Made by a program: the position numbers and the translations under genes. Shown piece by piece: positions 9,001-57,276 of a DNA stretch of 64,000 nt; positions within the stretch are counted from its first letter, which is position 1; each line of letters starts with the position of its first letter. A model generated the notes under the pieces. The model had not been told where the DNA came from and did no database searches. It saw only the letters and a program-made list of their open reading frames with translations. Origin of the DNA: Barthelona sp. PCE (Eukaryota); the NCBI GenBank assembly GCA_040285745.1, contig JAUFOR010000002.1, forward strand, positions 1,922,001 to 1,986,000. Direction: 5' to 3'.

Positions 9001-11181
9001 CGTGAACAAGGTGGTCATTGTGTTCTTTCACCTTCAAAAGCTTGGAAGATTGCTGACGTACTTGAAATGGCACAAGAATTTATTGATGATGATGATGATA
9101 TGGGATGGCTCGATGATGATTACGATGATGATGCTTATCTCTTAGCTTCAGCTCGTTCACTCGCTCAACTTAACTCTCCTCGTGGTGTCCGCTCTACTGC
9201 TGCATTGTTCTCTACAGACTTTGCTGTTGATGAAGATTCGGAATTCTCTGATGAGGAAGTTCAGCGTGAAGATATCGACGAGTTCAAGTTCACTGAACCT
9301 GGTAAGAAGGAGCTTGACACTGAAGCACGTGATGCTCTTCTTGAGCGTCTTCGCATTGCTATGCGTGCTGGTGTCCGTCTTCCAATTACTGCTGTTGATA
9401 TTGAAGTCCTTCTAGACAGTGTTGAAGATGCTGACATTGATACTATACCTTTCAATGAGCTCTATGTTGCTCTACGTGATGCTTGTGATGCTGATAGATC
9501 ATTCTATCTTCGTCGTGATGATGTTCGTGAGTTATACTGGAGCTTCCATCCCTCTACCCGCCCTGATAAGTTGAAACTCATTGAAAATGATTGGACAGAT
9601 TGTCTACCTCAGACTGGTCTTTTCACAAACGATGCCAAGACTTTGAAGAAACTTTTCGTTATTGCCCCCGAAGATCGTGTAACACCTGAAATGAATACTT
9701 TCATTGATGAATTCCGTGATTCAATCAAGACCATTGATGAGAATGAAGGTGGTCTGCTGTATAGCGAGAAGGACCGTGTTCTACTTGAAAAGATTATGAA
9801 TGTTGCTTCTGGCTTTGCCTTTGACATTGCTGCTGAAGTACACTTTGAATCCAAGGTTGTAGACGAACACACACTTGATTCCGATCTTGTTGCTGTTTGC
9901 TTCTCAGTATTCTCCTCTTTGAAGGAGGTTCTTGATGGAGAACTTGAGCGTCGTGTTTACAAGATGCTTAAACATGCCTATAAGGAGAACACATCATTAA
10001 TTTTCACCGAAGAAACAGGTGATGTTCTAGTTAAAATAATGAATGACGCTTTCAAGCCAATTCATTTTGATTGTTTCGTACCATACGAATCTGAACCCGA
10101 ACCTGAATCTGAATCCGAGCCTGAGCGTGAACAAACGCCTGAGCCCGAGCCTGTGGTTGAACCAGAGCCTGTGGTTGAACCCCAACCTGTTGTCATTCCT
10201 CCCATTGACTTACCCACTAAGACTGATGAAGTTGATGACACAGATCTTATTAATGCCATCACTGAGCGCTCTTCCACAGTTGAAGAAGAAGAGCTCGTTG
10301 ATGTCACCCCTGTTGTCGATACTGTTGAAGAGGATACAGATGATTTCGTCTCCGTTATCACTGGCGCCTCTGACATTGAGACAAAACTAGACGACCTTCA
10401 ATCGTTAAGTCCCAAGGCAGATCCTGAGCTTGAAGCCATCCTTGAAGAAGGTATTCCTCAGGAACAGTTCCGTCAGGAGCTATCCTCGCCATTGCCTGCT
10501 GTTCATGCTGACATGCCTCCACTCCAACACATTGCGAATAAGCAAGAAGAAGATGCTGTATCCGCCAGCACTAGTGCTATTCCTATTGATGTAGACTCTG
10601 ATGAAGAGCGTGGTAGCCGTAAGAAGCGCCGTAAGAAGAAGAAGAGAGGCAAGCATAAGACTAAGGCACTTGATGCACTTGAAGCCAAACTCGCTGCCGC
10701 TGCCGCCAAGAATGAAATCAAGGTGGTTAAGGACATCGATCAAAAGGCTCTCAGCAAGGCCAAGAGCGATAAGGTAGTCCTAGAGATTTCTGCTAGATTG
10801 TCAAATATTGGTGTTACTGATGCACCTGTTATGGCACTTTCACCACTTTACGCAAAGAAATTAGCTGAAGTCCTTTCATTCCTTGTTTTCTGGGAACCCA
10901 CAGAAGATGAACAACGTATCATAGATGTCATTCAACAATCTGCTGTTAAACGTCGTCCTATCCTACTTCAAAACGAAGAGGTTGAGATTACACAGACTAT
11001 GATTAATCGCTGTTTGTCTGCAAGTCATACCATTGAAGTCGAAACTAGTGGACGTAAGGGTTTGACAAAGGGTGTATCCATCCAGGATATTAAGAGGAAG
11101 TTCGGTTCACAAGCAGATGTTACCGAACCTACTGATAAGAAACGTAAAAAGAAACGTAGACGTCGTTCTAAAGCATCTTAA
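1..11181 (+). CDS. Giant type-I membrane protein (>3717 aa, 5'-truncated): Gly-rich beta-helix-like repeats, partial EGF-like and PSI-like Cys modules, one TM helix, ~1070-aa acidic cytoplasmic tail
   Basis: Frame 1 is open from base 1. Repeated GGxL/WxxGxI beta-strand motifs run to ~6000. CYPDDCACSYGFDGKSC (~6010-6060); CSAHSNKERCLTYNFCGWCNTTSTC (PSI-like); hydrophobic LLIVGIVFAVLLFIGALIMGY (~7912-7977) followed by RYFKNKKK. Strong C/T-ending codon bias. Confidence 0.85.
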   Translation, partial: FTVQGSLDVMGGDMFGVGTIDISGSVNCKECDFSGNTFSINIAGDFLLDGVMMLTDGPTISIDGGNFEARTGHVNSTNGNALIEVLSGGHLQLSAFTDMYFHGDATDVIEVEGFIDINTIRRNFIDWTLDLRGVVDCIRGINYVTKDSHSRGNWTIASDCTVRFTGGTHQLYSGGMFSGAGSVYLDSATMVVEGVIDLTNAANGFYIKGGILSGRYGMSCPGVIQQNGGTLEFEQLPDGEVYHIGTIVMSESGTLTTEENLIIDNALFVRGGRIVVDKTLVVNGIMEVRGGEITNGGTVVCNDVLNWDNGTISGIGTTLNITAPFNFQNVMYLEDKPVLNIFSTWTYGSGTIVPSGETVINILKDANVDFQVNSAAAVLSGTANIFNIYGNVTLQSTQSVIIDWLSNFHEGSNLFCNSGLIAFNSYAEFESDTVIDVDCTVLLENGTFAMQQHADFSGAGTLDISNATLELNGHLEMSNISNGVILRDSNADFTMISTPRGSITIKSGTLQLDNGNVIFDNLQVIGGDVKMSSHGTIVTINEYMKLNGGTYSLPANSRLIINGEFDWVGDFASTGRVEIGSTGVVNMLHPELISRAVENDGTIHLPHSGVYKIEDLNSRISTSSSGRVFIYNNTRVETFDIDTSLVVDGEVLIYGDVTLKNVKFTGAVHVFEGNVRCETETKFTGELYLWNSSVINFNFGTHQLSGSVEEGTVVVNNASAVLTIGSLDVKNTKFHLTDGQITVTQSSTGATVADPFFTVDGGSMTFNPTASNHSVGVLLLNDGLVTLNGAIYVKQALNITGGEITGTGKVYTEYLFMSNGLITTSSQFYILTDSDMTLTSTTLRDITFVNMGEMRWNSGSITMSNGIFINEASGTLRIIGLDCNFGSTATGIVLINKGLVKKEIFGTTSIAGLQNMGNIRCTGGILQLISESDMSGGSVSLKYGSQLQYKDGSHNMYSSIEGDYTGILSVDGEWTQVSIYASLRVSSIQINEGTVTIYHGASPMIYDNQVSIETFGGVINIGKHPSASSSAKFKNIAVYGGYVNIFNTTRSNNILMNGGDLVIESELQVTSIVTFKNGSVSGAGRLSGGCSIQAVLPNHYTALSIQDYACTQTISVDKGAEIQLSYPFSISSSAKIEVDDGNVRFMPNPWHSPNFEFEINAIKIYKPAVIIESGAKVTLLDSLDLTSEAEIEVDGELTIQSGKSIVFTNGLIHGSGTIVTDTFVWKGGNFNSTGTLTTSQMTIKDSARFKAIAGEYEVTTTSSMKWEAGAINFYDYGKLIIGPGVLAEMTGFTANSYVHNSTVAGIYNYGVFKKLSNAENTEIQGLFNYDDFRHERGKLYLTGFTLSTGKFTVGQPLYIQGVLSLQGTSAEMFVYSTISLIDGVLSLDGASFDLSDRKFNFDNATIEMRNNATLVSSIPLELIDVTLHFKDGISSYVADVEVTESGRILIDDDARIGSIDLNRGLITGSANLTVDNLLLQRGTINSSLVLHVKDLVIDKYDTYVKDTVELNLENGTLLWIGGKLLASDNARVIVDADSSILFDIALEEAVFEFVDNSILVLNGSLHKTDVKPAIISLPSIIIGETGSVYIRDSILQFNGTALIQGNVTHVSGDRVVFLEGTHTVESGASLTVGGASTNVEIYSDELILKGEITMTKLTTNDTIVNVNPSADIEIALLNIVGDTKFTSDICGSFMEVTSFTFNPGVDLTIERVNMSIASNNNWRYGDILLGECAALHIPAGIRFTIDCREDCTIAPAGVYSSTMVPRIDVWGEMYKSGDSVFTLAAFTYLNEGGKLHMHRRHSIFDLGDHKIVGPGTFSMGDTAQIRHISGRLSLPENSHTMLKNNYYLEGGVIHLKADANITIMADFHITAGSLVLEEGTNVTIDGDIASFEMDFNCPLPPNVQDLADDITFWESFCTGTPGIHLLDGTAPVEVSGLILRGGVLKASNDMTFHQLRLIENGVLYALNSNVTFVGNSSLSDHYVRDDDAAVFAGNGFLNIENGYCYPDDCACSYGFDGKSCQSDCSAHSNKERCLTYNFCGWCNTTSTCQLATIAGLPAEGECSEFYFGDVEECVGVSTSAPNSNSILTPVITSSWSNADQLTTFSMNAHYYRGGLTWYLNFAEFDPTERNITNTDNCENHDGDSYVVDGELIERSDFTITAPHANIRGALSNPHYPAYTESTSFWTLTNASCSDISYVGVFSLPNAFSCVEKSSGRPYWEVTGYNNTALLNFKSTLFWAGVVPRYYESLTGDITQDEIIAQGNHTFYEQFVLRSVSNYYATCGASLESATCTPCDLSGCSAYPEISVQFELLDLKLVNTKPGFYYKYEIHMVIHTVSRLGYALNDPSSLKVGDVDLEGERIEVAGEGIHDQYWLIKTAAGSALKNPEAFASQLHVGWIPQYCGLNTTALSSCRAYGGAGLRVRYSTTLRFINTPTFKVNSYVGMVFYASGLTPEVDPSTSLFGPYSVGSTIRAKHFMSINEVDSIDLNALIGKRLEYRLKNVSVCVSDGDMPSWDPENNHFGCADFDPTYLAVDGTAVQGSDATAYKFRIESMQLKSAVVQDDGKMQEDKANLFGTFSFKAPSYAVVTLVNVHVVADLIDVEDGSILKTEHIISPVQVESSAVLRTVVTKPDEGSNTLLIVGIVFAVLLFIGALIMGYRYFKNKKKVVEPKKLLDHSGDDERILRELAELTSLNTNELVTASPKERLLRTMQSLSSLVHTASSANLGSEISDAEFQGHDFDPVDDIIDLESDIDSFDEDYDEDFLQENFIIAQKIEEAIKETVDLLLEVREGERVVQLMSTVAPSAMDDEENQIIAQIQTQVNVNEDPVVDPASCILLNKYINTNETEILGIHSDSIIAKLSTGLTYAARCAPETQLTPVEAECCVQALNEVPLVSYTQREIEVVNSMVQALHGGRLVSLMNDEALTVANMLSRAGLPTWSSTDYAITKLISQLRADARSGDKSVLSPVETERAAICLELIPVGELDPQQAAAVADLLRIREQGGHCVLSPSKAWKIADVLEMAQEFIDDDDDMGWLDDDYDDDAYLLASARSLAQLNSPRGVRSTAALFSTDFAVDEDSEFSDEEVQREDIDEFKFTEPGKKELDTEARDALLERLRIAMRAGVRLPITAVDIEVLLDSVEDADIDTIPFNELYVALRDACDADRSFYLRRDDVRELYWSFHPSTRPDKLKLIENDWTDCLPQTGLFTNDAKTLKKLFVIAPEDRVTPEMNTFIDEFRDSIKTIDENEGGLLYSEKDRVLLEKIMNVASGFAFDIAAEVHFESKVVDEHTLDSDLVAVCFSVFSSLKEVLDGELERRVYKMLKHAYKENTSLIFTEETGDVLVKIMNDAFKPIHFDCFVPYESEPEPESESEPEREQTPEPEPVVEPEPVVEPQPVVIPPIDLPTKTDEVDDTDLINAITERSSTVEEEELVDVTPVVDTVEEDTDDFVSVITGASDIETKLDDLQSLSPKADPELEAILEEGIPQEQFRQELSSPLPAVHADMPPLQHIANKQEEDAVSASTSAIPIDVDSDEERGSRKKRRKKKKRGKHKTKALDALEAKLAAAAAKNEIKVVKDIDQKALSKAKSDKVVLEISARLSNIGVTDAPVMALSPLYAKKLAEVLSFLVFWEPTEDEQRIIDVIQQSAVKRRPILLQNEEVEITQTMINRCLSASHTIEVETSGRKGLTKGVSIQDIKRKFGSQADVTEPTDKKRKKKRRRRSKAS

Positions 11182-13303: not shown

Positions 13304-16300
13304 TTACTGTTCATAAGCAACTCTGGTGTATTCGTCTTCACAGGCCATGCGAATGCGATCACATGAAGCAGGAAATCCAATTTGCGGCACCTCATCCAAA
13401 TCCACTGATGTTCTGAAAGAGTTGACTGCACTAACAATAGCTTCATAGATGGAATAACCAAGGACAAAGGGTGGCTCACCTACTCCTTTGGATCCACGAA
13501 CCGCACGATCATTAACAGGCATATCCAGCATATAAATACGCATGTCTCTGGGAATATCAGTATATGATGGAATCTTATAATATGCTGGTCCGGGTCCGAA
13601 TACGGCTCCGTTGGGCATACGCAAAACTTCCTCAATTGTGTTCCAACCAGTACCTTGAACGAAGGCACCTTCAATTTGACCAATATCAATGGAAGGATTG
13701 ATGGAACGACCCAGATCCATACAGATATCTGTTCTAAGAATCTTGAAATAACCAGTGAGAGTATCAACTTCAACTTCACTGACTGCTGAACCGTAGGTGA
13801 AATAGTTGAATGGATGACCTGTCTTGGTCTCCCAATCCCACCCATTAATAGGAGTGGCATAGTAACCATATGCACTTGTGGGAACACGGTTCAAAAATGC
13901 CTGTAAGCACAATACGCTAAATTCAGCATCAGGATACTTTTCTCTAATGGGAATAAGGTTAGCATTAATCTCTTCACACGCATTTTTAACGGCAGCACAG
14001 TTAAGATCAGCTCCTGTCGATGCAGCAGTGGGTGATGTGTTGGCAACCTTGTCTGTAGCAGTCTCGGTAACATGGACCTTCTCTAATGGTACACCAAGCA
14101 CCTCGCTTGCAATCTGTGCCACCTTTGTGTGAACACCTTGACCCATCTCAATACCACCATGTGAAATGAATACAGATCCATCTTGGTAACAATGAACGAG
14201 TGCAGAAGCCTTGTTCATCATTTTGTTAGTAAATGAGATTCCGAACTTCATCGTCATGTGACTAAGCCCGCGTTTAACACGCTTATGTGTAGCATTGAAG
14301 GCAGCAACTTCCTCTTGACGACGACGGAGATCAGCAAGTGTGACAACCTCATCAAAAGTATGCAAAAGATGATTGTCGTTCAAAATCATGCCAAAATGCG
14401 TCTTAGCAGCTTCACCCATAAGGTTAGCGCGTTTCATAGCGAATAATTCCTTCTTGAGTACAATAGCTCCATGTCTTACAATAACCTCACCAGCGTTATG
14501 TGCAGCGGGTAATCCGAAACCTCGGAAAGCAGTCATTGAAGGCTTGTTAGTTTGACAGATCTTACCATTAACATAAAGATAAGGCCATTTAAAACCTGCG
14601 TCAATGTGGAACATCGAGCGTTCAATCATTGCAACACTGAGATCCCATGAGAATCCTGCATCAGCATAAATTGTGGTGTGTAAAGCGTGACAAGTACCAT
14701 CAGCCTTGAAACCAGCCTTGTATTTGATGAGGTAAGGCTGTCTCTTACCGGTTAACAACATATCATCTTGTCTTCCGAGGTTAAATCGACAAGGCCTGTT
14801 GGTTTTGTGTGCAGCAAGTGCAGCAAGACCACACCATAGATAATTACACTCCTTTCCACCGAATGCACCTCCACAACGACGCACCTTTGCGATAACGCGG
14901 TTGCTATCGATACCCAGGATACGTGATACTGAAGACTGTGCACCAGAAGGTGACTGAGTGCTGTAATAGAGTTGATACTCCTCACCAGGAACAACAACAG
15001 CATTGTTATTCTCCATATAAAAGTGTTCCTGTTCGGGAGTCTTGACTTCACCTTCAACCACAACGTCACAGCCTTCTAACTCAGTCATGACAGTCTCGAG
15101 AGAATGATCATCATTAGAGATATACCTTTCGAAATCAAAGTAACACTCCTTAGCAATTGCATCTTCAATCGTGACGACGGCATCCAGTTCCTCGTACTCA
15201 ATTTTGGCCTTCTTTGCTGCCAACCATGCGACCTTATTGGTGGTAGCAACGACTAGCGCAATTGGTTGACCATAGTAAAGACACTCGTTCGTTACAAGAT
15301 ACTCCTCATCTTTTGAAATAGCACCAGTTGCATTCTTACCCGGGATATCATCGGCTGTAATCACTGAAACAACACCTTCTACGTCCCATACATCAGAGTA
15401 ATCCGCAGAAATAATACGTGCATGAGGCTTTGTTGTCTTAACAACTGCAACATGAAGCATATGAGGTGCCTCAACATCGACAGAGTACTCAGCTTCACCA
15501 GTGGCGTGAAGATAACCTGCAAGGTGCATTTTATCTGTGCCAGCATCAGTGGTGGATTTCTCATCCTTGTAGTGCTGCTCACCACGTGACATTGTGTGTT
15601 CAATGGGTTCGTAGGGATCGAGATTAAGCTCGTCAAGCATGTGACGGTTGCCGCGCTCGGTACACACATAAGAAATAAATTGAACAATAATTGACTGAAG
15701 CATGGTACGACGATAAGGAATAATTCCACCAGGAGCGTTATCTGATAAAGGCAGCTCTGCACGAACACTTTCTACCAGACTGTGCACGGTATCTATATCG
15801 AAAGGCTTGCCATTCATCTCAGTCATTGTCTTGTTAGCCATAACAACCCATGGAGCCATACCACCAAAGGATAAACGCAGCTCTGCGATGATGCCATCAA
15901 CGATTCTGATGAGGAAACCACCGTTAATGATGGAGATATCATCTTCAAGACGTCGACATTGCTTCATAGCATGTGTGAAAGTGAATTCATCTACCTTAGG
16001 AATGATCACCTTTGAAACGAACTCAAACTCCTCAAGATCAACTTTCTTGTATCCCTTGACAAAAGAATCTGCGCGGACACGGCGCGATGACCCTTCCTTT
16101 GCATTAACAATCACGTATTCAGCGTTAACAGCCATTAGAACGGGGATAGCATCCGCAATAGGTGCAGAGTTAACAACGTTGCCAGCGAGTGTTGCGACAC
16201 TTCTGATCATACGGTTAGCAAAAAAAGTGAGCTGATGTGCCAAAGTAAAAAGAGGGCGAAGCTCAGGAATTTTTTCTACAGTTTTAACGAATTTTTGAAT

Positions 16301-17152
16301 ATGAAGCAAGGGAGTCATTGCACCAATTGTAATTGCCTCACCTTCGACATCAATACCTGCATAATCGGACATTAGATGAAGAGAGATACAGGAAGGAAAT
16401 TCAGAATCAAAGAGAAGCTGTTCAATCTTAATTTCACTCAGACCTGAAATGAATTTGGGACATGAATCCATCTCGTTGACAATAGCAATGAGATCCTGCA
16501 GGGTTGTAGGAACATAAATATCTACATTTGAGTAATTAAATGAAATAGAAGTGGGGATGCGTAAATTAGGAACGTTTAAGTTCAAGAAATTAGTGGGTAG
16601 ATCTTCGTTACACCTCTTCTTAATGTCATCGGAACAATCATGGGCAAAGGATTTAGCTGCGTCAAGGATAGGACGATAACCAGTGCAACGACACAGATTG
16701 CAATCAAAAGATTCTTCAATCTCTGCCATAGATGGGAGACGGCCTCCTAGTTCCTGCTTTGTTTCAAGTAAGAAACTGACAATAGCCATAACAATACCTG
16801 GTGTGCAAAAACCACACTGAGTACCGTGAAATTCTGCCACACGTTTCTGAATAATGTGAAGCTCGGTTGAGACGGATCCCAGGCCGGCAGCTGTCCAAAC
16901 AGCGCTGTTATGTAGATAATAAATCGGAGTCATACATCCCAACAATGCTCTGTAACGTAAATCACCTGTGGTGGTCATTGAAGCAACAAGAACGGTACAT
17001 GCACCACAACCGCCTTCTGAACAGGCGACTTTGACACTTTTTATACCCATTACTTCTCTAAAATAGCTTGAAACAGACATTAAAGGATCTATTGTATGAT
17101 TAACTTCATATTTTAACCCATTAAGGAAGAAACTTATCTGACGGCTTTTCAT
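13304..17152 (-). CDS. XDH: Xanthine dehydrogenase/oxidase (single-chain 2Fe-2S/FAD/Moco)
   Basis: CSEGGCGAC, QCGFCTPG and CRCTGY Fe-S motifs; GGAFGGKE (Glu802-equivalent), IER (Arg880-equivalent), TAFRGFG and GVGEPP (catalytic Glu) are all present. Confidence 0.93.
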   Translation of the reverse strand: MKSRQISFFLNGLKYEVNHTIDPLMSVSSYFREVMGIKSVKVACSEGGCGACTVLVASMTTTGDLRYRALLGCMTPIYYLHNSAVWTAAGLGSVSTELHIIQKRVAEFHGTQCGFCTPGIVMAIVSFLLETKQELGGRLPSMAEIEESFDCNLCRCTGYRPILDAAKSFAHDCSDDIKKRCNEDLPTNFLNLNVPNLRIPTSISFNYSNVDIYVPTTLQDLIAIVNEMDSCPKFISGLSEIKIEQLLFDSEFPSCISLHLMSDYAGIDVEGEAITIGAMTPLLHIQKFVKTVEKIPELRPLFTLAHQLTFFANRMIRSVATLAGNVVNSAPIADAIPVLMAVNAEYVIVNAKEGSSRRVRADSFVKGYKKVDLEEFEFVSKVIIPKVDEFTFTHAMKQCRRLEDDISIINGGFLIRIVDGIIAELRLSFGGMAPWVVMANKTMTEMNGKPFDIDTVHSLVESVRAELPLSDNAPGGIIPYRRTMLQSIIVQFISYVCTERGNRHMLDELNLDPYEPIEHTMSRGEQHYKDEKSTTDAGTDKMHLAGYLHATGEAEYSVDVEAPHMLHVAVVKTTKPHARIISADYSDVWDVEGVVSVITADDIPGKNATGAISKDEEYLVTNECLYYGQPIALVVATTNKVAWLAAKKAKIEYEELDAVVTIEDAIAKECYFDFERYISNDDHSLETVMTELEGCDVVVEGEVKTPEQEHFYMENNNAVVVPGEEYQLYYSTQSPSGAQSSVSRILGIDSNRVIAKVRRCGGAFGGKECNYLWCGLAALAAHKTNRPCRFNLGRQDDMLLTGKRQPYLIKYKAGFKADGTCHALHTTIYADAGFSWDLSVAMIERSMFHIDAGFKWPYLYVNGKICQTNKPSMTAFRGFGLPAAHNAGEVIVRHGAIVLKKELFAMKRANLMGEAAKTHFGMILNDNHLLHTFDEVVTLADLRRRQEEVAAFNATHKRVKRGLSHMTMKFGISFTNKMMNKASALVHCYQDGSVFISHGGIEMGQGVHTKVAQIASEVLGVPLEKVHVTETATDKVANTSPTAASTGADLNCAAVKNACEEINANLIPIREKYPDAEFSVLCLQAFLNRVPTSAYGYYATPINGWDWETKTGHPFNYFTYGSAVSEVEVDTLTGYFKILRTDICMDLGRSINPSIDIGQIEGAFVQGTGWNTIEEVLRMPNGAVFGPGPAYYKIPSYTDIPRDMRIYMLDMPVNDRAVRGSKGVGEPPFVLGYSIYEAIVSAVNSFRTSVDLDEVPQIGFPASCDRIRMACEDEYTRVAYEQ

Positions 17153-21408: not shown

Positions 21409-24400
21409 TTAAAGTTTTTCAACCTTGACAGCACAGAACTTAAGCTGAGGGATTTTTGCTTGAGGATCAACAACATCAATCGTCAAATCATTTGCGGCAG
21501 CCTCTTGGAAATGGAAAGGAACGAATACAACACCAGGAGCGATGTTCTTAACCTTAACAGCACACTCGATTGTACCTCTGCGGCTGGAGACACGAACCAT
21601 CTCACCGTTCTCAACACCTAACTTAGCGCAGTCTTCATTGCTGATTTCAACGAAACAGTTGGGTGCCATCTTGTTTAGTGTGGCACAACGACGAGTCATT
21701 GTACCGGTATGGTAGTGAGCGAGAATACGACCAGTTGAAAGAACGAAGGGGTATTCGTTGTTGGGGAGTTCAGCTGGATCTTCTACTTCGACAGCACAGA
21801 ATGATCCCTTTCCACTTGTGGAACGGAACCAATCGATGTGTAGAATGGGAGTACCGGGATGATACTTTGACCAACAGGGAATATGAATACCCTTGAGCTC
21901 ATCAACACGCTCGGAAAGAACACCACGGTAAAGAGCTGTGGTTTCAGCGATTTCATTGGTGATCTCGCTGGCCTTGGTGTAGTTCATGTTAGTCTTACCC
22001 ATTGCCTTAGCAATCATGCTGACAATTTCCCAATCGGGCTTGCTTACACCAGGAGCTTCGTGAGCCTTGACGATAGGCTGGACACGACGCTCGGTGTTGG
22101 TAGCAGTGCCGAATTTCTCAGCAAGAGCAGCAGCGGGAAGGACAACGTGAGCCTTCTCAGCAGTGGGAGTCATAAAGATGTCTTGGACAACCAGGAAATC
22201 AACGATATCAAGAGCGTGCTTGACATGGTTGGCGTTGGCATCAGAAACAACAGGGTTCTCACCCATGATGTACATACCCTTAACCTTTTTGTCATCAGTG
22301 ATAGCATGGAACATTTCAGTAATAGTTAAACCAACCTCCTTGGGGATCTCAGATTCCCAAACGGACTCCATGATCTTATATTCAGGGTTGGTAGTATCAG
22401 CGACACTGAGATAACCAGGTAAAACGTTGGGGAGTGCACCTAAATCGCAGGCACCCTGGACGTTCATCTGACCACGAAGGGGGTTAACACCAGCTCCTGG
22501 TTTACCGAGGTTACCAGTAGCGAGTGCAAGGTTAGCAATACAACGAACGTTGTTGGTACCAAAGGTGTGTTGTGTGAGACCCATACAGTAAATGATGGAA
22601 GCAGGATCGTTTTCACCATACCAATGAGCAGCAGTGCGAATATCCTCAGCAGCAAGACCGGTGATTTCACTGGCGTACTCAAGAGTATACTTCATAACGT
22701 GCTCGCGAGTTTCCTCGAAGCCTGTAGTCTTGTTAGCAATGAATTGCTCATCAACAAGACCGGAGACAATAAGCTCACGGAGCATGGCGTTGAGGAATGC
22801 AATATCTGTACCGGGACGAATCTGCAGATACAAATCAGCCTTCTTAGCGAGGTTAATCTCACGAGGATCAACAACAATGAGCTTGGCACCGCTCTTAACA
22901 GCCTTTGTAACCGACTGTGAACCAACAGGGTGAGCCTCAGTGGTATTGGAACCAATCACGAGGATACACTTAGCCTCTTCCAGATCAGCAAAGGTGTTGG
23001 TCATGTGACCGGAACCAAATGCGTTACGAAGACCAACGACAGTAGAAGCGTGACAAAGACGAGCGCAGTGATCAACGTTGTTAGTGCCAACAGTAGTACG
23101 CATAAACTTCTGGAATGCGTAGTTATCTTCGTTAGTGCAACGAGCAGAACTGAGACCAGCAATGGCATCAGGACCATGTTCAGCCTTGATAGCTGCGAAA
23201 CGCTCAGAAATGAGGGTAATGGCCTCTTCCCAGGATGCTTCCTTAAAGGAACCATCCTCTTGACGGATAAGAGGTGTCTTAAGACGATCCTCGCTATCGA
23301 GGAAGTCCATACCCTTGAGACCCTTAATACAGAGACGACCCTTGTTGACAGGAGCCTTCTTGTTACCAGAGCACTTGACAATCTTGCCATCCTCAGTCTG
23401 AATAGTAACACCACAACCTACACCACAGTAAGGACAGATGGTATCAGTGCTGTTAACGTCCTCAATATCGACCTCAGCCTTGGGGGCAGCAACAGCCTTT
23501 GGAGCAGGAGCCTTCTTACCAAGGAAAGCAACCTCAAGATCAGTAACGAAAGCAGCAATAGCAGCCTCAACGTTACCATCCTTCGACTCATCACCCTTAT
23601 GGAAGGAAACGCAAGTAGCCTTGGCATTCTCCATAGCCTCCTTGAACAAATCAGCACACTTGCAGAAGAGCTCATAGTTGGAATCACCCAAACCAAAGAC
23701 ACCAAACTTGAATTTGGACAAGTTCTTCATCTTTGAAAGAGCAGTGTAGAGGGATTCAGCCTCAGCAGGGAACTCGCCATCACCAACAGTGGACGTGACA
23801 AGAACAACCTGCTCGAACTTCCACATGGCCTTGAATGATGTCTTAGCCATAGGGATGACAGTTTCTGTACCAAGCTTCTTGGCAACAGTGCGGGCAATAC
23901 CCTCAGCGTTTCCTGTTTCAGATCCGTAAACAACACAGATGGGGGCAGAAGCAGACTCCTCGGCCTTAGCGTTGGGATCAAGCATGTCCTTCATCTTTGC
24001 GAGACGAATCTGACGCATCTTGGTATCGTGCTCAAGCTCTTCTTGGAGCATGGCAGCACGCTCAGGATCGGAACGCTTAAGAGTGTGGAAACGTACCTCC
24101 TTATCGAGTAAGGCGGTCAATGGCTTGGATGGAGCGCGATGATCGATAATGAGAGGGTTCTTACCCTTGGCAACGAGGTCAGGGTTATATCTATAGAGAG
24201 GCCAGTAACCGGTCTCAACAGCAAGCTTACCTTCAATGTCAGACTCACCCATACCCTTACGGATACCGTGGTTAATACAGGGACAGTAAGCAATGACGAT
24301 AGAAGGACCATCAAATGCCTCAGCCTCTTGAATTGCACGAAGGGCCTGCATCTTGTTAGCACCAAGAGCAATAGAGGCAACGTAAACGTTACCAATGTTC

Positions 24401-27400
24401 ATGGCGAGAAGACCAAGATCCTTCTTGGAAGTAACCTTACCAGCAGCGGCGAAACGAGCAACACCGGCACGAGGTGTGGCCTTTGAGACCTGACCGCCAG
24501 TGTTCGAATAGACTTCAGTGTCCATAACGAGAATGTTAGTGTTATCAGGCATGTTAAGCACCTGATCGACACCACCATAACCGATATCGTAAGCCCAACC
24601 GTCACCGCCGAAGATCCAGGGAACAGGGCGGATGAAGAGGTGACGAGATGCAAAGACGGCCTGAAGAAGGGCATCGTTGCGGGTCTGAATGAGAGCCTCA
24701 ACCTCCTTGACAATGACATCTGTCATTTCACGAGTGGGATCAGCAGTCTCGAGCCAGGTAGTGAGGAGCTCCTTGAGCTGAGCGGGAAGCTCGGTCTTTA
24801 GAAGCTTTGCAACATCACCAACGAGACGTTCACGTCTGTTGCGAAGAGCAGCAGTCATACCAAGACCAACCTCAGCGGCAGCCTCGAATAGAGTACCGTT
24901 AAAAGCGGGACCACGACCAAACTCGTCCTGACCCCAAGCAGAAGCGGGGTACATACCACCCCAAACAAGAGAACAACCGCATGCATCAGCAATGTAAAGA
25001 CGGTCACCCCAGTTACGACAAATGAGAGATGCAGTGGAGGTTTCAACACAACCAGCACAAGCTCCGGAGAATTCCAAGTAGGGGTTGTGGAACTGGACGT
25101 CACGCAATACCTTACGAGGGAACTTCTCACCGTGAGCGGGAAGAGAAACAGCAGTCTCCCAGTTCTGAACCTCAACAAGGTTGTCAGAAACGTTCTGCAT
25201 GTCAAGCGCATCCTTAGGACAGATGGTAGTACAGACGGTACATTGCATACAATCGAGAGGAGAAACTTGAATACGGTATTGGAAATCCTGCTTACCCTTG
25301 AATTTAAGAGTGTTGAACTCCTCAGTAACCTCATCCTCAGCAGCAACGAGGAAAGGACGGATGGCAGAGTGTGCACAGACAGATGTACACAGGTTACACT
25401 GTACACAATTGTCAGAGATCCAGACGGGGATCTTCAGAGCAACACCACGCTTCTCGTATTTGGAGGTACCAGTTGGAATAACACCACCAGTAACCTTGTG
25501 GAACTTAGAAACGGGGATTGAATCACCCTCAAGCTTAGAACACGGAAGAATGACATCAGTGAACCACTCGGGGGTATCCTCGGGCCAGGCAGGGTGCTGC
25601 TCGATGGGGGTAGTAGCCCAGGACTCGGGGACATCAACCTTGATAAGGTTAGCAAGAGCCTCATCGACGGCACGCATGTTAGCCTCAACAATGGCGTCAC
25701 CCTTGTGACCATAGGTCTTAACAATTGCCTTCTTGAGAAGAGCAATAGCTTCCTCAATGGGAATAACCTGTGAAAGCTTGAAGAAGACGGTGTTCATAAC
25801 CATATTGATACGGTTAGGAAGACCTGCGTTTTCAGCAACAGTGAAAGCGTCGATAACGTAGAAATCAACATTCTTAGCAGCAATAGCACGCTTCATAGAA
25901 CCAGGGAGCTCCTTGTCTAACTCCTCAAAATCAATGTTAGGAGTGTTAAGGACAAAAGCAGATCCGGGCTTGGCGAACTTCAACATGTTGAAGTGGTGCA
26001 CGAAAGCGGGGTTGTGACAGGCAACGTAATCAGCATGACGAACACAGTACTCGGAAGTAATGGGATCGGGGCCGAAACGCATGTTGGAGACGGTGAAACC
26101 ACCAGACTTCTTTGCATCGTATTGGAAGTAACCTTGAGCGTAGTTGGTTGTGTTATCACCAATAATCTTGATTGCGTTCTTACCAGCACCAACTGTACCA
26201 TCAGAACCAAGAGCAAAGACGACAGCCTGCTTACATGTCTCAGGAAGTGCATCAACCTCATCAGGCAGCTCAAGATGAGAGAATAGAACGTCATCAAGGA
26301 TACCAACGTTAAAATCACGTTTGGGCTCCTCTACAATCATATTGTTGATGACAGCGACAGCATGAGTAGCAGTGAAATCCTTACCACCAACACCGTAGCG
26401 ACCAGGCACAACAGTGATCTCAGGACGGTTCTCATAGAGACACTCGTTAACTGAGAGGTAGAGAGGCTCACCAATGGCACCAGGCTCGTGAGTCTTGTCA
26501 ATAACTGTAACAGTCTTAACAGAAGCAGGAAGAGCGCCAAGAAGGTGCTTGTTGGAGAAGGGACGGAAAAGACGGACCTTGATGAGACCAATCCTTCTAC
26601 CCTGAGAGTTGAGCAAGTTAATAGCTTCCTCAACTGCTGTGGAACCGGCACCCATCATAACAACAACTTGTTCAGCATCGGCAGCACCAACGTAATCAAA
26701 GAGGTTGTAAGAACGACCAGTGAGCTTAGAAACTTGATCCATACAGCTCTGAATGATATCAGGGATGGCGTTGTAGTAGGGCTCAGCAGCTTGAAGGAAT
26801 TGCCAATAGATGTCAGCGTTTTCTACACCACCACGTTCAGAGGGGTTGTAGTTGTTCATTGAACGCCACTTACGATACTTGGCAAGAGCTTCGAAATCAT
26901 ACATAGCAGCAATCTCCTCTGGGGTAATGATGTTAATCTTGTTAACTTCGTGAGAGATACGCATACCATCAAAGAAATGCATGATAGGTAAGCAAGTCTT
27001 AACTGTAGCAAGGTGTGAAACAACAGCGAGATCCATAACTTCCTGGACTGTGTTCGATGAAAGCATGGAGAAACCGGTCTGACGACAGGCCATGACATCG
27101 GAATGATCACAGAAGATATTCATTGCCTGACCAGCAACGGCACGAGAAGCAACATGGAAAACGGTGGGGAGCATCTCACCAGCGAGCTTGAACATCTCAG
27201 GTACCATAAGCATGAGACCTTGTGAACAAGTGAAGGTAGCAGTGAGGGCACCAGCGCAAGCAGCACCGTGAAGAGCTCCAGCAACACCACCTTCAGATTG
27301 CATCTGCATGGCACCAACAACACGGTTAAAGATGTTCTTGGTACCCTTGGAACGCCAAATATCAGCGTATTCGCACATTGGACTTGAAGGAGTGATGGGG

Positions 27401-30400
27401 TATTGGAATACCATATCAACGGCATAATAGGAAGCAAGGAGAGCAGCCTGATTACCATCAACGGTCTGCCAAACTTCCTGACGCTGAGCGGGGAGCTGAG
27501 TGATACGGAGAGGAGGAACAACCTCGGGAGCAACCTTGACGGGCTCAGGGATATCTCTCTTGTGCTCGAGCATGGACTCGTAGTAATCCTTCATGGAGAG
27601 AAGACGACCGTTAGCCTGATCGATATCCTGCTGAAGAGCCTTCTGCAGTTCAGCAGCACGTTCGGGCTGGGAACGCATAAGAGTGTGGAAACGAACCTCG
27701 TTCTGGAGGAAGAGGCTGAGATCCTTGGAAGCGGGCTTCGAATCGATAATGAGAGGGTTCTTACCCTTGGCAATGAGATCGGGGTTGTATCTATAAAGAG
27801 GCCAGTAACCGGTCTGAACAGCAAGCTTAGCTTCAATGTCAGATTGGGTCATACCCTTACGGATACCGTGGTTAATACAAGGACAGTAAGCAATAACAAC
27901 TGAAGGACCATCATAAGCCTCAGCCTCTTGGAAAGCCTTAAGAGTTTGAACCTTGTTGGCACCAATAGCAACAGAGGCAACATAAACGTTACCAATGGTC
28001 ATGGCGTGAAGGCCTAGACTCTTCTTACCAGTAGCCTTACCGGCAGCAGCAAAACGAGCAACACCAGCACGAGGAGTAGCCTTTGAGACCTGACCACCAG
28101 TGTTGGAATATACTTCAGTATCCATAACGAGGATGTTAATGTTACCAGCCATGTTAAGCACCTGATCAACACCACCGAAACCAATATCGTAAGCCCAACC
28201 GTCACCACCGAGAATCCAGGGAACGGGACGAACTAAAAGATGCTGGTTGGCAATGATGTTCTTCATTGTGGGATGAGGGTGATCAGCAGGAAGTAACTTA
28301 TGGACAGCATCAGCAACGATTTGCTCAATGTATTCGTCCTTATCAACGATTGCTAACCAGTTCTTGAAAGCCTCAATGAGCTCAGTGCTAACATTAACCT
28401 CTTCAGGATAAGCGATAACTGAACGAATATCAGCAATAACACTATCACGCATATAGAAAAGACCAGCAGTTAAACCGGCACCAACCTCAGCGGTATCCTC
28501 AAAGAGGGTACCCAGGAAAGAGGGTCCTCGGCCAAACTCGTTCTTACCCCATGCAGAAGCGGGGTACATACCACCCCAGACTAGGGAGCAACCGCAAGCA
28601 TCAGCAATGTAAAGACGATCACCGAACATCTGTGTAAGGAGCTTGGCGTGTTGAGTTTCAGCACAACCGGCACAAGCGCCAGAGAATTCGAGAAGGGGTT
28701 GATGGAACTGAACGTCGCGCAACACCTTAAGAGGGAATTCTTCACCATGAGCAGGAAGCTCCATGGTCTTCTCCCAGTTAAGAATTTGCTCAGGATCCTC
28801 ATCAACGTCAACCATTGAAAGGGCGCTCTTGGGACAAGCAGTAGTACAGACAGTACAACCCATACAATCAAGAGGGGAGACCTGAATGCGGTACTTGAAA
28901 TCACCGGGTGCCTTACCACGGAGTGGAAGCATCTCAATGTTCTCAGGAACGATATCCTCATCAGTTGCAAGAACAGGACGGATAGCGGCGTGAGCGCAAA
29001 CTGTTGAGCACAAGTTACATTGGACACACTTACCAGACTCCCACTGGGGGATCTTGAGTGTGACACCACGCTTCTCGTACTTGGAAGTACCAGTGGGAAT
29101 AACACCACCAACAACGTCCTTGAACTTGGAGACGGGAATGTTCTCACCTTCAAGCTTGGAACAAGGAAGAATGACATCAGTGAACCATTCAGGGACATCA
29201 TCAGGGAACTTGGTGACTTCCTCAATTGGAGCTTCCTTCCAGTTCTCAGGGACATCAACCTTAATGAGATGAGCTAATGCCTCATCGACGGCACGCATGT
29301 TGGCCTCAACAATGGCATCACCCTTATGTCCGTAGGTCTTGATGATAGCTTTCTTAAGAAGAGCAATAGCTTCCTCAAGAGGAAGAACCTCAGAGAGTTT
29401 GAAGAAAACAGTGTTCAAAACCATATTAATACGGTTAGGAAGACCAGCCTTTTCGGCAACATCGAAAGCATCGATAACGTAAAAGTTAATGTTCTTGTTA
29501 GCGATTTCGCGTTTCATGCTGCTGGGGAGCTCCTTGTTAAGAGATTCAAAATCAGTGTGAGTGATATTAAGAACAAAGTTAGCACCTTGCTTTGCGTGTT
29601 TAAGCATAGCAAAGTGATGAATGAATGTAGGGTTGTGACAGGCAATGTAATCAGCGTTACGAACACAGTATTCGGAAGTGATTGGATCAGGACCGAAACG
29701 CATGTTTGAAACGGTGAAACCACCAGACTTCTTAGCATCGTACTGGAAGTATCCTTGGGCAAAGTTATCAGTGTTGTCACCAATAATCTTAATGGCATTC
29801 TTACCAGCACCAACAGAACCGTCAGCACCAAGAGCGTAAACCAAACATTGGGTAGTAGTTTCGGGGATTGGATCAACGACAGGGGGAAGTTCAAGGGAAG
29901 AATTGAGTAAATCGTCAGTGATACCAATGTTGAAGTCGAGCTTGGGCTCAGCCTTCATAGCGTTTTGGTAAACAGCAAGGGCGTGGGTAGGGGTGAAGTC
30001 CTTACCACCAAGGCCGTAACGACCAGGGATGACCTTAACATGACGCTTAAGCTCGGCAAGAGCAGCGCAGACATCAAGGTAAAGGGGTTCACCATTAGAA
30101 CCAGGTTCGTGTGTCTTGTCTAAGACGGTGATAGTCTTGACAGAGGCGGGGATAGCCTCGTCAAGATGGACAGCAGAAAAGGGACGGAAGAGACGGACTA
30201 CAACACAGCCAACCTTGCCACCCTGATTGTTAAGGTACTCGGAGATTTCACAAGCAGCGTTAACACCTGAACCCATCATGATAACAACGTGTTCAGCATC
30301 GGGAGCACCGTAGTACTCGTAAAGCTTGTATTGACGGCCAGTTAGTTGAGCAACCTGATCCATACAACCCTGAATGATCTCAGGGACAGCCTTGAAATAT

Positions 30401-31131
30401 GGTTCTGCAGCCTGAAGGAATTGCCAATAAATGTCAGCGTTCTCGACACCACCGCGTTCGTCAGGGCGGTCAGTGTTCATAGAACGGCGCTCACGCCATT
30501 TCATAAGGGCGTCGTGATCATACAAAGCAGCCATTTCCTCAGTGGTCATAACATCAACCTTGTTAACCTCATGAGAGATACGCATACCATCATAAAAGTG
30601 CATGACGGGGACGGTTGACTTGATAGCTGCGAGATGTGAAACAACAGCCAAATCAGCAACTTCCTGAACAGTGTTGGATGAGAGAATTGTGAAACCTGTT
30701 TGACGACAGGCCATGACATCGGAGTGATCACAGAAGATATCCATAGCCTGACCGGCAACTGCACGTGATGATACGTGGAAGACGGTTGGATGAAGTTCAC
30801 CAGCTAATTTAAACATGGTGGGAACCATGAGAAGCAGACCCTGAGAACAGGTTGCTGTGGATGTCAAGGAACCTGCGCTTGAGGCACCGTTAAGTGCTGC
30901 AGCGACACCACCTTCTGATTGCATTTGAATAGTATTCGTAACACAATCAAAAATGTTCAACTTGCCTTGTGTGCTGAGTGTATTGCTTAACTCACTTGCG
31001 CTTGATGCTGGAGTGATAGGATAGAGCAATGTTATATCGGTGTACGCATATGACGCATTGACTGCAGCTGTATTTCCGTCAATTGAACGGTAATTTGGTT
31101 GTCTACCATTGGAAAGCCTTTCTTTGTTCAT
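21409..31131 (-). CDS. Fusion protein: PFO - PFO - flavodoxin - formate dehydrogenase (FdhF-type molybdopterin subunit), 3240 aa
   Basis: PFO1 ~31090-27590 and PFO2 ~27470-23990, each with YPITP, QSEGG, two CxxCxxCxxxC ferredoxin motifs, SGACAGC, GDGWAYDIG, YSNTGGQ and YCPC. Flavodoxin ~23940-23521 (YGSETGNAE, STVGDGE, GLGDSNY). FDH ~23450-21409 (CPYCGVGC, LCIKG, DHCARLCH, PLRGQMNVQG, STGRILAHYHTGTMTRR). No stops, and uniform strong codon bias. Confidence 0.95.
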   Translation of the reverse strand: MNKERLSNGRQPNYRSIDGNTAAVNASYAYTDITLLYPITPASSASELSNTLSTQGKLNIFDCVTNTIQMQSEGGVAAALNGASSAGSLTSTATCSQGLLLMVPTMFKLAGELHPTVFHVSSRAVAGQAMDIFCDHSDVMACRQTGFTILSSNTVQEVADLAVVSHLAAIKSTVPVMHFYDGMRISHEVNKVDVMTTEEMAALYDHDALMKWRERRSMNTDRPDERGGVENADIYWQFLQAAEPYFKAVPEIIQGCMDQVAQLTGRQYKLYEYYGAPDAEHVVIMMGSGVNAACEISEYLNNQGGKVGCVVVRLFRPFSAVHLDEAIPASVKTITVLDKTHEPGSNGEPLYLDVCAALAELKRHVKVIPGRYGLGGKDFTPTHALAVYQNAMKAEPKLDFNIGITDDLLNSSLELPPVVDPIPETTTQCLVYALGADGSVGAGKNAIKIIGDNTDNFAQGYFQYDAKKSGGFTVSNMRFGPDPITSEYCVRNADYIACHNPTFIHHFAMLKHAKQGANFVLNITHTDFESLNKELPSSMKREIANKNINFYVIDAFDVAEKAGLPNRINMVLNTVFFKLSEVLPLEEAIALLKKAIIKTYGHKGDAIVEANMRAVDEALAHLIKVDVPENWKEAPIEEVTKFPDDVPEWFTDVILPCSKLEGENIPVSKFKDVVGGVIPTGTSKYEKRGVTLKIPQWESGKCVQCNLCSTVCAHAAIRPVLATDEDIVPENIEMLPLRGKAPGDFKYRIQVSPLDCMGCTVCTTACPKSALSMVDVDEDPEQILNWEKTMELPAHGEEFPLKVLRDVQFHQPLLEFSGACAGCAETQHAKLLTQMFGDRLYIADACGCSLVWGGMYPASAWGKNEFGRGPSFLGTLFEDTAEVGAGLTAGLFYMRDSVIADIRSVIAYPEEVNVSTELIEAFKNWLAIVDKDEYIEQIVADAVHKLLPADHPHPTMKNIIANQHLLVRPVPWILGGDGWAYDIGFGGVDQVLNMAGNINILVMDTEVYSNTGGQVSKATPRAGVARFAAAGKATGKKSLGLHAMTIGNVYVASVAIGANKVQTLKAFQEAEAYDGPSVVIAYCPCINHGIRKGMTQSDIEAKLAVQTGYWPLYRYNPDLIAKGKNPLIIDSKPASKDLSLFLQNEVRFHTLMRSQPERAAELQKALQQDIDQANGRLLSMKDYYESMLEHKRDIPEPVKVAPEVVPPLRITQLPAQRQEVWQTVDGNQAALLASYYAVDMVFQYPITPSSPMCEYADIWRSKGTKNIFNRVVGAMQMQSEGGVAGALHGAACAGALTATFTCSQGLMLMVPEMFKLAGEMLPTVFHVASRAVAGQAMNIFCDHSDVMACRQTGFSMLSSNTVQEVMDLAVVSHLATVKTCLPIMHFFDGMRISHEVNKINIITPEEIAAMYDFEALAKYRKWRSMNNYNPSERGGVENADIYWQFLQAAEPYYNAIPDIIQSCMDQVSKLTGRSYNLFDYVGAADAEQVVVMMGAGSTAVEEAINLLNSQGRRIGLIKVRLFRPFSNKHLLGALPASVKTVTVIDKTHEPGAIGEPLYLSVNECLYENRPEITVVPGRYGVGGKDFTATHAVAVINNMIVEEPKRDFNVGILDDVLFSHLELPDEVDALPETCKQAVVFALGSDGTVGAGKNAIKIIGDNTTNYAQGYFQYDAKKSGGFTVSNMRFGPDPITSEYCVRHADYVACHNPAFVHHFNMLKFAKPGSAFVLNTPNIDFEELDKELPGSMKRAIAAKNVDFYVIDAFTVAENAGLPNRINMVMNTVFFKLSQVIPIEEAIALLKKAIVKTYGHKGDAIVEANMRAVDEALANLIKVDVPESWATTPIEQHPAWPEDTPEWFTDVILPCSKLEGDSIPVSKFHKVTGGVIPTGTSKYEKRGVALKIPVWISDNCVQCNLCTSVCAHSAIRPFLVAAEDEVTEEFNTLKFKGKQDFQYRIQVSPLDCMQCTVCTTICPKDALDMQNVSDNLVEVQNWETAVSLPAHGEKFPRKVLRDVQFHNPYLEFSGACAGCVETSTASLICRNWGDRLYIADACGCSLVWGGMYPASAWGQDEFGRGPAFNGTLFEAAAEVGLGMTAALRNRRERLVGDVAKLLKTELPAQLKELLTTWLETADPTREMTDVIVKEVEALIQTRNDALLQAVFASRHLFIRPVPWIFGGDGWAYDIGYGGVDQVLNMPDNTNILVMDTEVYSNTGGQVSKATPRAGVARFAAAGKVTSKKDLGLLAMNIGNVYVASIALGANKMQALRAIQEAEAFDGPSIVIAYCPCINHGIRKGMGESDIEGKLAVETGYWPLYRYNPDLVAKGKNPLIIDHRAPSKPLTALLDKEVRFHTLKRSDPERAAMLQEELEHDTKMRQIRLAKMKDMLDPNAKAEESASAPICVVYGSETGNAEGIARTVAKKLGTETVIPMAKTSFKAMWKFEQVVLVTSTVGDGEFPAEAESLYTALSKMKNLSKFKFGVFGLGDSNYELFCKCADLFKEAMENAKATCVSFHKGDESKDGNVEAAIAAFVTDLEVAFLGKKAPAPKAVAAPKAEVDIEDVNSTDTICPYCGVGCGVTIQTEDGKIVKCSGNKKAPVNKGRLCIKGLKGMDFLDSEDRLKTPLIRQEDGSFKEASWEEAITLISERFAAIKAEHGPDAIAGLSSARCTNEDNYAFQKFMRTTVGTNNVDHCARLCHASTVVGLRNAFGSGHMTNTFADLEEAKCILVIGSNTTEAHPVGSQSVTKAVKSGAKLIVVDPREINLAKKADLYLQIRPGTDIAFLNAMLRELIVSGLVDEQFIANKTTGFEETREHVMKYTLEYASEITGLAAEDIRTAAHWYGENDPASIIYCMGLTQHTFGTNNVRCIANLALATGNLGKPGAGVNPLRGQMNVQGACDLGALPNVLPGYLSVADTTNPEYKIMESVWESEIPKEVGLTITEMFHAITDDKKVKGMYIMGENPVVSDANANHVKHALDIVDFLVVQDIFMTPTAEKAHVVLPAAALAEKFGTATNTERRVQPIVKAHEAPGVSKPDWEIVSMIAKAMGKTNMNYTKASEITNEIAETTALYRGVLSERVDELKGIHIPCWSKYHPGTPILHIDWFRSTSGKGSFCAVEVEDPAELPNNEYPFVLSTGRILAHYHTGTMTRRCATLNKMAPNCFVEISNEDCAKLGVENGEMVRVSSRRGTIECAVKVKNIAPGVVFVPFHFQEAAANDLTIDVVDPQAKIPQLKFCAVKVEKL
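23990..31090 (-). repeat. Intragenic tandem duplication of the PFO unit (~3.6 kb period)
   Basis: Near-identical DNA tracts at an exact 3600-nt offset (e.g. 24142-24290 vs 27742-27890); identical peptides such as FQYDAKKSGGFTVSNMRFGPDPITSEYCVR. Confidence 0.92.
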
Positions 31132-56992: not shown

Positions 56993-57276
56993 AAGAATAG
57001 TTATTACAAGTTCCAATTTGACATTCGATTTTCTGACTTAGATTCCCCCCGTTTTGGTTTCTAAGTCCCGCTTTTTAGTAATAAAATTTTCATTTAAGCG
57101 ACCTTTAATGTAGTGGTTTTTGCAGGCTTCCTTTTATAGCACTTTGAGCCAACAAATAACTTTAATATTTGCTGTAGCTACAGTGATTCCCCTAAAATTA
57201 TTCAAAGTTAGCTGTACAACAATAGTGGTTCTGATTTCACATACTATATCTCTTTCGCGGGTTAAACATAAAACTT

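Follow-up and report, generated by a model that had tools for sequence, protein, structure and literature searches.

A stretch of 64,000 nucleotides from Barthelona sp. PCE (contig JAUFOR010000002.1, positions 1,922,001 to 1,986,000, hereafter the window) contains an open reading frame (ORF) in which two pyruvate:ferredoxin oxidoreductase (PFO) units, a flavodoxin domain and a formate dehydrogenase (FDH) domain are joined, and raises the question of whether a eukaryote passes electrons from pyruvate to CO2 within one protein. A preliminary description, made from the sequence, had named the product a candidate pyruvate-driven CO2 reductase. The fusion gene and its architecture are real and the gene encodes a single polypeptide.

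The stop-free frame with two full PFO units, a flavodoxin and a complete FdhF-like domain that was originally reported was recovered by the ORF, Pfam, and NCBIfam analyses (table 1). The only stop codon in the frame is the terminal one, none is located at the three junctions, and the ORF lies inside a 2.13-Mb contig; an open frame of 9.7 kb cannot have arisen by chance in DNA of 48% GC. Five Pfam families (POR_N, POR, PFOR_II, EKR, and the ferredoxin-like dicluster family Fer4_7) were identified in two stretches each, together with Flavodoxin_1 at residues 2400-2523 (78.5 bits, cut-off 25) and the three families of the bis-pterin molybdo-enzymes, Molybdop_Fe4S4 (2561-2612), Molybdopterin (2616-3042), and Molydop_binding (3129-3234). 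Neither FAD_binding_1 nor NAD_binding_1 was identified in the protein by Pfam, nor was any hydrogenase, HycB, or ferredoxin-docking domain. Both linker strings quoted in the preliminary description are present in the translation, and the junctions that it placed at ~27530, ~23960, and ~23490 lie inside linkers 1, 2, and 3, respectively. Within the large gene are four ORFs of 166-268 amino acids that run antisense to it or in a different frame (22930-23736 and 27403-27903 on the plus strand, 24855-25406 and 28581-29258 on the minus strand); in all likelihood they are shadow ORFs of the coding sequence.

Table 1. Coding sequence, domains, and linkers of the fusion gene (window positions).
Feature	Position	Strand	Residues	Remarks
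Whole coding sequence	21409..31131	-		ATG start, 3240 codons, terminal TAA; predicted mass 354 kDa
PFO unit 1	27547..31131	-	1-1195	
Linker 1	27469..27546	-	1196-1221	Pro/Val/Glu-rich; 19% identity to P0002 (57% in flanking domains)
PFO unit 2	23992..27468	-	1222-2380	
Linker 2	23941..23991	-	2381-2397	17 amino acids, 47 (Lys/Glu/Val-rich) in P0002
Flavodoxin (FMN) domain, CysJ/CPR type	23548..23940	-	2398-2528	PF00258
Linker 3	23464..23547	-	2529-2556	Ala/Pro/Lys-rich; 28 amino acids, 39 in P0002, 29% identity
FdhA-type formate dehydrogenase / CO2 reductase domain	21412..23463	-	2557-3240	TIGR01591

A total of 5.8 billion protein clusters were screened for long relatives (1782-5670 amino acids), of which 7999 candidates were scored, 154 passed, and the best 120 were listed. 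Molybdopterin families are present in three of these 120: the window protein itself, a protein designated P0002, and a bacterial FDH of 1788 amino acids that lacks PFO. The other 117 contain PFO families without molybdopterin families and are mostly of the pyruvate:NADP+ oxidoreductase (PNO) type with FAD and NAD domains. Among the best 120 of the 154 long relatives, only P0002 shares the architecture of the window protein. P0002 is an ORF of 3266 amino acids, marked complete, from a EukProt transcriptome assembly of another organism. The two proteins are collinear from end to end and identical in 1794 of 3287 aligned columns (55%, with 3% gaps). The identity is 57% for both PFO units and for the FDH domain and 38% for the flavodoxin domain, but only 19-29% for the three linkers, which also differ in length. 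Conserved domains connected by drifting linkers are the pattern expected if all four domains are under selection and the linkers are mere tethers. As P0002 was identified in a transcriptome, the relative transcribes the whole fusion as one message.

Three public DNA runs, possibly from the sample used for the assembly, contained only short contigs with 100%-identical pieces of 157-330 bp, none of which spans the gene. One of these covers 23426-23606, and the joints found in the contigs were short secondary matches, either of one PFO repeat with the other or with different organisms. A scan of metagenomes with patterns specific to the window sequence returned two loci with 30% identity to the FDH part alone; no further fusion was found, which does not imply absence. 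The probability that separate genes were joined by misassembly is very low: the PFO units form a repeat with a spacing of 3.66 kb and the public contigs cover the gene in short pieces only, but the units are just 71.5% identical in DNA and too diverged to collapse or chimerise, the junctions are free of stops, linker 3 is bridged by the 100%-identical contig, and the same domain order is present in an independent transcript ORF of another organism.

Integrity and origin of the domains

The PFOR model TIGR02176 matches the protein in two stretches with 2952 bits (cut-off 911), the second of which, unit 2, covers model positions 2-1165 of 1167. The alignment of unit 1 to the Moorella PFOR chain 6cin_A (1171 residues) extends over residues 4-1157 of that chain (1220 bits). 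Integrity was assessed against the 120 best standalone PFORs, in which 316 columns, including 13 cysteine columns, reach an invariance of 98% or more. Of the 316 columns, the four fused units (two each from the window protein and P0002) retain 283, 283, 289, and 281 (283 in each window unit), and each retains all 13 cysteine columns. Many of the differences are common to all four units, suggesting that they are clade signatures rather than decay. The cysteines are taken to be the ligands of three [4Fe-4S] clusters and the GDG motif, present as GGDGWAYDIG at residues 975 (unit 1) and 2175 (unit 2), to bind thiamine pyrophosphate. The PFOR homology of unit 1 begins at residue ~15, which leaves no room for an N-terminal targeting peptide and suggests that the fusion protein is located in the cytosol.

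In a phylogenetic analysis of the PFO units, the four fused units form one clade (SH-aLRT 99) that is sister (100) to the standalone PFOs of "Eukaryota sp. TZLM1-RC" and "TZLM3-RCL", followed by the PFO of Trimastix. TZLM3-RCL has been called a skoliomonad metamonad (PMC11316075). The PNO sequences and the Anaeramoeba PFOs are located on the opposite side of the tree. The placement of the fused units in a eukaryotic, metamonad-type PFO clade outside PNO indicates that the PFO part is of the host lineage's own kind and that the PFO-flavodoxin junction arose independently of PNO. The two PFO units share 68% amino acid identity within the window protein and 59% within P0002, and 55-58% between the two proteins. 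A tree in which unit 1 of the window protein was forced to group with its P0002 counterpart was rejected (p-AU 1.9e-6; the group was named after an earlier tree had been viewed). Either an old tandem pair has undergone concerted evolution, or the PFO unit was duplicated separately in the two lineages. A recent gene conversion of the window units was considered and rejected, with DNA identity varying between 45% and 83% per 60-codon window.

The flavodoxin domain contains the loops GSETGNAE, STVGDGEFP, and GLGDSNY, which were identified both by alignment and by a motif scan, and retains all six columns that are invariant in an alignment with 23 flavodoxin-domain proteins (24 in total) drawn from the matches of a search with the domain. 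The loops are presumably involved in FMN binding, with GSETGNAE as the phosphate-binding loop. A search with the domain returned 1990 matches at E <= 0.001, and the four of the best eight that were scanned with Pfam are multi-flavodoxin, CysJ-like, and HydA-flavodoxin-FAD proteins with 34-36% identity. Judged by these relatives, the domain is of the CysJ type, and they point to no donor. A complex prediction of the flavodoxin against the FDH domain, run without controls, scored 0.03 and 0.05, where the mark is 0.34, a result that carries no weight in either direction. One of the flavodoxin matches (P0364, 4122 amino acids) contains seven stretches of the [FeFe]-hydrogenase large subunit, three flavodoxin domains, and one FAD_binding_1 domain and represents either a giant hydrogenase-CysJ array or merged gene models.

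The FDH domain matches the complete Fdh-alpha model TIGR01591 (positions 1-672 of 672) with 844 bits (cut-off 666), while the models of sister molybdo-enzymes remained under their cut-offs (NasC, 549 and 1100; NapA, 370 and 904; FdhF/YdeP, 295 and 582), as did the NCBIfam models for thiosulfate reductase and NuoG. An alignment with 31 prokaryotic FdhA proteins (32 in total) identified the four cysteines of a CxxCxxxC...C motif (C2566, C2569, C2573, and C2601) with the following lysine (K2603), the DHCARLCH motif (Cys2693 and His2694), and the arginine of PLRGQ (Arg2886) as invariant columns. These residues are taken to function as the [4Fe-4S] ligands and accompanying lysine, the metal-ligand cysteine with its adjacent histidine, and the conserved arginine of this enzyme type. 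The FDH domain of P0002 likewise retains the cysteine cluster, the lysine, the Cys-His pair, and the arginine. The best match in the PDB was 9t1s_L (747 bits), whose selenocysteine position is occupied in the alignment by Cys2693, the second cysteine of the DHCARLCH motif; 7qv7_S matched with 681 bits. Cytoplasmic enzymes make up the closest solved relatives, among them the FdhA of the F420-dependent FDH (F420-FDH) and the FdhF of the hydrogen-dependent CO2 reductase (HDCR). As the latter is by its name a CO2 reducer, the FDH type fits the proposed pyruvate-driven CO2 reduction.

The best prokaryotic relatives of the FDH domain are 50-55% identical to it and are mostly FdhAs of ~900 amino acids from uncultured anaerobes with N-terminal NuoG-like Fe-S domains, and PF00258 is present in none of the 120 best FDH-domain matches listed. 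The presence of a flavodoxin in place of the NuoG-like domains suggests that the FMN domain replaces the usual electron-entry module. In a tree with 61 prokaryotic sequences (every second of the 120 best matches and, in addition, the sequence P0093), the FDH domains of the window protein and P0002 are sisters (100), indicating that the FDH was gained once from a prokaryote.

Direction of electron flow

The two PFO units would most likely fold as an intramolecular version of the PFOR homodimer, and through the tandem arrangement each PFO dimer would always be combined with a single flavodoxin and a single FDH. Each unit would convert pyruvate and CoA to acetyl-CoA and CO2 and thereby load its three [4Fe-4S] clusters. 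The flavodoxin domain, held by two flexible, low-complexity linkers of variable length, would act as a swinging arm, a tethered one-electron shuttle that carries electrons from the distal cluster of the PFO to the [4Fe-4S] cluster of the FdhA domain, where a cysteine-ligated Mo- or W-bis(pyranopterin guanine dinucleotide) center would reduce CO2 to formate. The net conversion of pyruvate and CoA to acetyl-CoA and formate would equal that of pyruvate formate-lyase (PFL) but would require no glycyl radical, hydrogenase, or free ferredoxin. The intramolecular dimer, the role of the flavodoxin as a shuttle, the direction in which the electrons flow, and the cytosolic location are all inferred. The acetyl-CoA + CO2/pyruvate couple has a potential of about -500 mV and the CO2/formate couple of about -430 mV, and this gap makes the forward flow from PFO to FDH exergonic by ~13 kJ/mol, as in PFL. 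By analogy, both halves of the wire have precedents, PNO for the transfer from PFO to FMN and the nitrate reductase NasN, which operates reductively, for the transfer from an FMN domain to a [4Fe-4S]/Mo enzyme.

The claim of a pyruvate-driven CO2 reductase in the preliminary description was borne out in part. The cofactor-binding and catalytic residues are intact and the domain order is kept in P0002, but the direction of the electrons is not given by the sequence. The predicted flow from pyruvate through FMN and [4Fe-4S] to Mo/W, with formate as the product, is about evenly balanced between being right and wrong. Several points weigh against it. No eukaryote is known to make the bis-guanine-dinucleotide form of the molybdenum cofactor, and without MobA or FdhD the FDH domain would be inactive. 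FdhA-type enzymes are reversible, so that membership in the type gives no direction. The stoichiometry does not require one FDH per two PFO units, and the distal cluster of unit 1 may lie beyond the reach of the tethered flavodoxin and be left to serve free ferredoxin. There is also no operon precedent: at the 80 loci of the closest prokaryotic fdhA genes (1,099,505 bases, up to 10 kb on either side), tblastn identified PFO unit 1, PFO unit 2, or the flavodoxin at none (0/80), but the FDH control at all (80/80). Finally, every member of the metamonad group to which the nearest named PFOs belong is reported to have PFL (PMC11316075). Should the organism also contain PFL, the need for another route to formate would be less obvious.

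The main rival, serious though fairly unlikely, is a shared output, an alternative already named in the preliminary description, in which the protein would resemble an input module of a formate-hydrogen-lyase rather than a CO2 reductase. Pyruvate would be oxidised by the PFO units and formate, made for example by PFL, by the FDH domain, and the electrons would meet on the flavodoxin and the PFO clusters and exit to ferredoxin and an [FeFe]-hydrogenase. The reversibility of the FdhA type would permit this, and F420-FDH (9t1s) and the Fdh of the Hdr complex (7bkb), both among the closest solved relatives, reportedly oxidise formate in vivo. For the distal cluster of PFO unit 1 the fusion provides no partner, and some external acceptor would be needed in any case. 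However, the transfer of electrons from formate to ferredoxin is roughly isoenergetic, and a shared output offers no reason for a flavodoxin to join two independent donors within a single chain. The Pfam analysis identified no hydrogenase or ferredoxin-docking domain in the protein, and in both known fusions that contain this FMN domain (PNO and NasN) it joins a donor to an acceptor within the protein. In favor of a shared output, several HydA copies have been reported beside PFL in all members of the group with the nearest named PFOs (PMC11316075).

A dead or repurposed FDH module is improbable. The protein would then be a PFO with baggage, either because the bis-guanine-dinucleotide cofactor is missing or because the chain is cleaved into a PFO part and a flavodoxin-FDH part, and no enzyme of the DMSO-reductase family is known to be active in a eukaryote. 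A dead domain would be expected to decay, but the FDH is as conserved between the two organisms (57%) as the PFO units, keeps all invariant catalytic and cluster residues, and resembles the remainder of the gene in codon usage. A fused xanthine dehydrogenase (XDH) is encoded 4 kb away, indicating that the organism uses the molybdenum cofactor in some form, and a fusion containing FdhD has been reported beside FdhF in the anaerobic eukaryote Pelomyxa (PMC8887013), indicating that maturation genes do reach eukaryotes.

The reverse operation, a synthesis of pyruvate driven by formate, is very unlikely: the same wire would serve either direction and both PFOR and FdhA are reversible, but under standard conditions this synthesis would cost ~13 kJ/mol, and a gene for the glycolytic glyceraldehyde-3-phosphate dehydrogenase (GAPDH) with similar codon bias in the same window fits a catabolic role. 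Furthermore, the nearest named PFO relatives belong to bacterivorous flagellates (PMC11316075), for which no need of such a synthesis is evident.

It is put forward tentatively that a eukaryote operates an active DMSO-reductase-family enzyme within the 354-kDa chain as a pyruvate:CO2 oxidoreductase, that is, as a PFL equivalent that dispenses with radical, ferredoxin, and hydrogenase. If so, the protein would represent a new enzyme activity, a CoA-acetylating pyruvate:CO2 oxidoreductase (formate-forming). Anaerobic eukaryotes would then have three ways to convert pyruvate to acetyl-CoA, this one in addition to PFO/hydrogenase and PFL. The protein would also be the first bis-guanine-dinucleotide molybdo- or tungsto-enzyme to operate in a eukaryote and a natural single-chain design for the reduction of CO2 to formate with a cheap organic donor. 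Formate would be a main electron sink and a cytosolic source of one-carbon units, which would change models of electron disposal and syntrophy in free-living anaerobic protists (transfer of formate, not H2). The supply of formate and one-carbon units has been proposed as a remaining essential job of the reduced mitochondrion in free-living metamonads (PMC9746703), and cytosolic formate from such an enzyme could have helped the lineage to do without the organelle.

Neighboring genes and codon usage

The genes of the window are closely packed with short spacers. Pfam scans of the other long ORFs agree with the earlier statement that the neighbors are eukaryotic, identifying Vps23/UEV, Mre11, a P4-ATPase flippase, an SNF2 helicase, WD40 and leucine-rich repeat proteins, the fused XDH, GAPDH, and a class II fumarase/aspartase. 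No hydrogenase or HycB-type gene was named by Pfam among the 23 window ORFs scanned. All three stop codons terminate ORFs in the window, indicating that the standard genetic code is used.

The same codon bias runs throughout the fusion gene, as originally noted, with correlations of relative synonymous codon usage of r = 0.94-0.96 between PFO unit 1, PFO unit 2, and the FDH domain. This near identity indicates that the FDH part is neither a recent insert nor a contaminant. The GC content at third codon positions (GC3) is 0.44-0.47 along the gene (0.45 overall) and exceeds the window median; the corresponding values are 0.50 for GAPDH (49946-50968, plus strand), 0.48 for the class II fumarase/aspartase-type lyase (45504-46853, plus strand), and 0.46 for the flippase. 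GAPDH and the lyase display the highest GC3 of the window, and their likeness to the fusion gene would fit a bias common to metabolic genes with high expression.

The XDH gene (13304-17152, minus strand) encodes a eukaryote-style fused xanthine dehydrogenase / aldehyde oxidase of 1282 amino acids (Fer2, FAD_binding_5, MoCoBD_1, and MoCoBD_2). From its presence it follows that the organism synthesises the molybdopterin cofactor at least in its basic form, and two molybdo-enzyme genes are located close together. Three further ORFs contain no Pfam family at E <= 1e-5: a giant orphan of 3717 amino acids (28-11181, plus strand), which is open to the window start and may be longer, and two ORFs of 1631 (52121-57016, minus strand) and 824 amino acids (60201-62675, minus strand).

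Comparison with known systems

By the sequence tests run, the protein belongs to the PFOR, Flavodoxin_1, and FdhA families. The known system closest to its first half is PNO (Euglena, Cryptosporidium, Perkinsus, and others), which is likewise a eukaryotic single chain with a full PFO and a CysJ-type FMN domain as the acceptor of the PFO electrons. The most frequent type among the 120 listed long relatives is PNO, with ~40% identity over ~41% of the query. In PNO, however, the FMN domain is followed by FAD_binding_1 and NAD_binding_1, NADP+ is reduced, and a single PFO unit is present, whereas the window protein contains two PFO units and lacks both domains. With the FAD and NAD domains absent and the PFO units outside the PNO clade, the window protein is, on domain content and phylogeny, not a PNO but an independent fusion.

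The FdhF of HDCR (PDB 7qv7) resembles the FDH domain as a Cys-type enzyme with the same DHCARLCH motif that receives low-potential electrons through Fe-S clusters and converts CO2 to formate. In HDCR, which forms a filament of several subunits, an [FeFe]-hydrogenase is the donor and HycB-type Fe-S subunits are the wire; in the fusion protein, the donor would be PFO, the wire FMN, and the whole a single chain. Hydrogenase is absent from its identified domains, and the protein is in this respect not an HDCR. The FdhA of F420-FDH (9t1s_L), the best solved match (query residues 35-713 of a 713-amino-acid segment), has the same form of ~680 amino acids without NuoG-like domains. In F420-FDH a flavin mediates between Fe-S and the second substrate. 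The enzyme differs in its selenocysteine metal ligand, its separate FdhB with FAD and the F420 partner, and its archaeal origin. PFL shares the predicted net reaction of pyruvate and CoA to acetyl-CoA and formate. It is a glycyl-radical enzyme without relation to the fusion protein, depends on an activating enzyme, contains no redox cofactors, and forms no free CO2 intermediate.

A cluster of 63 bacterial Molybdopterin + Flavodoxin_1 proteins in the Atlas led to the comparison with NasN, the diflavin-containing monomeric assimilatory nitrate reductase of mycobacteria, in which a diflavin module drives a [4Fe-4S]/Mo enzyme (PMC7816997, PMC11162112). Like the second half of the window protein, NasN combines a bis-pterin molybdo-domain with a [4Fe-4S] site, a linker of variable length, and a flavodoxin-containing reductase module (PMC7816997, PMC11162112), but it is a bacterial enzyme without PFO that reduces nitrate with NADPH via FAD, and its flavin module is C-terminal. 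Among anaerobic eukaryotes, Pelomyxa schiedti and Mastigella are reported to contain a prokaryote-type FdhF homologue and a NifU-FdhD fusion, a candidate maturation factor (PMC8887013, PMC10711303); compared by description only, this FdhF is not mentioned there as being fused to PFO or flavodoxin. In barthelonids and skoliomonads, ferredoxin- or flavodoxin-like domains have been noted on some of the PFO and HydA copies, and neither "formate dehydrogenase" nor "molybd" occurs in the main text of that study (PMC11316075).

A description of a PFO-FDH fusion was not found in the full-text literature searched, a scope that leaves most subscription journals outside. The preliminary description had known of no enzyme with this architecture, and apart from P0002 none was encountered in that literature or among the 120 long proteins listed. 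So far as found, the architecture is undescribed, and the proposed chemistry is plausible, with a precedent for each module: by analogy, the first half of the protein would work like PNO and the second half like NasN or HDCR.

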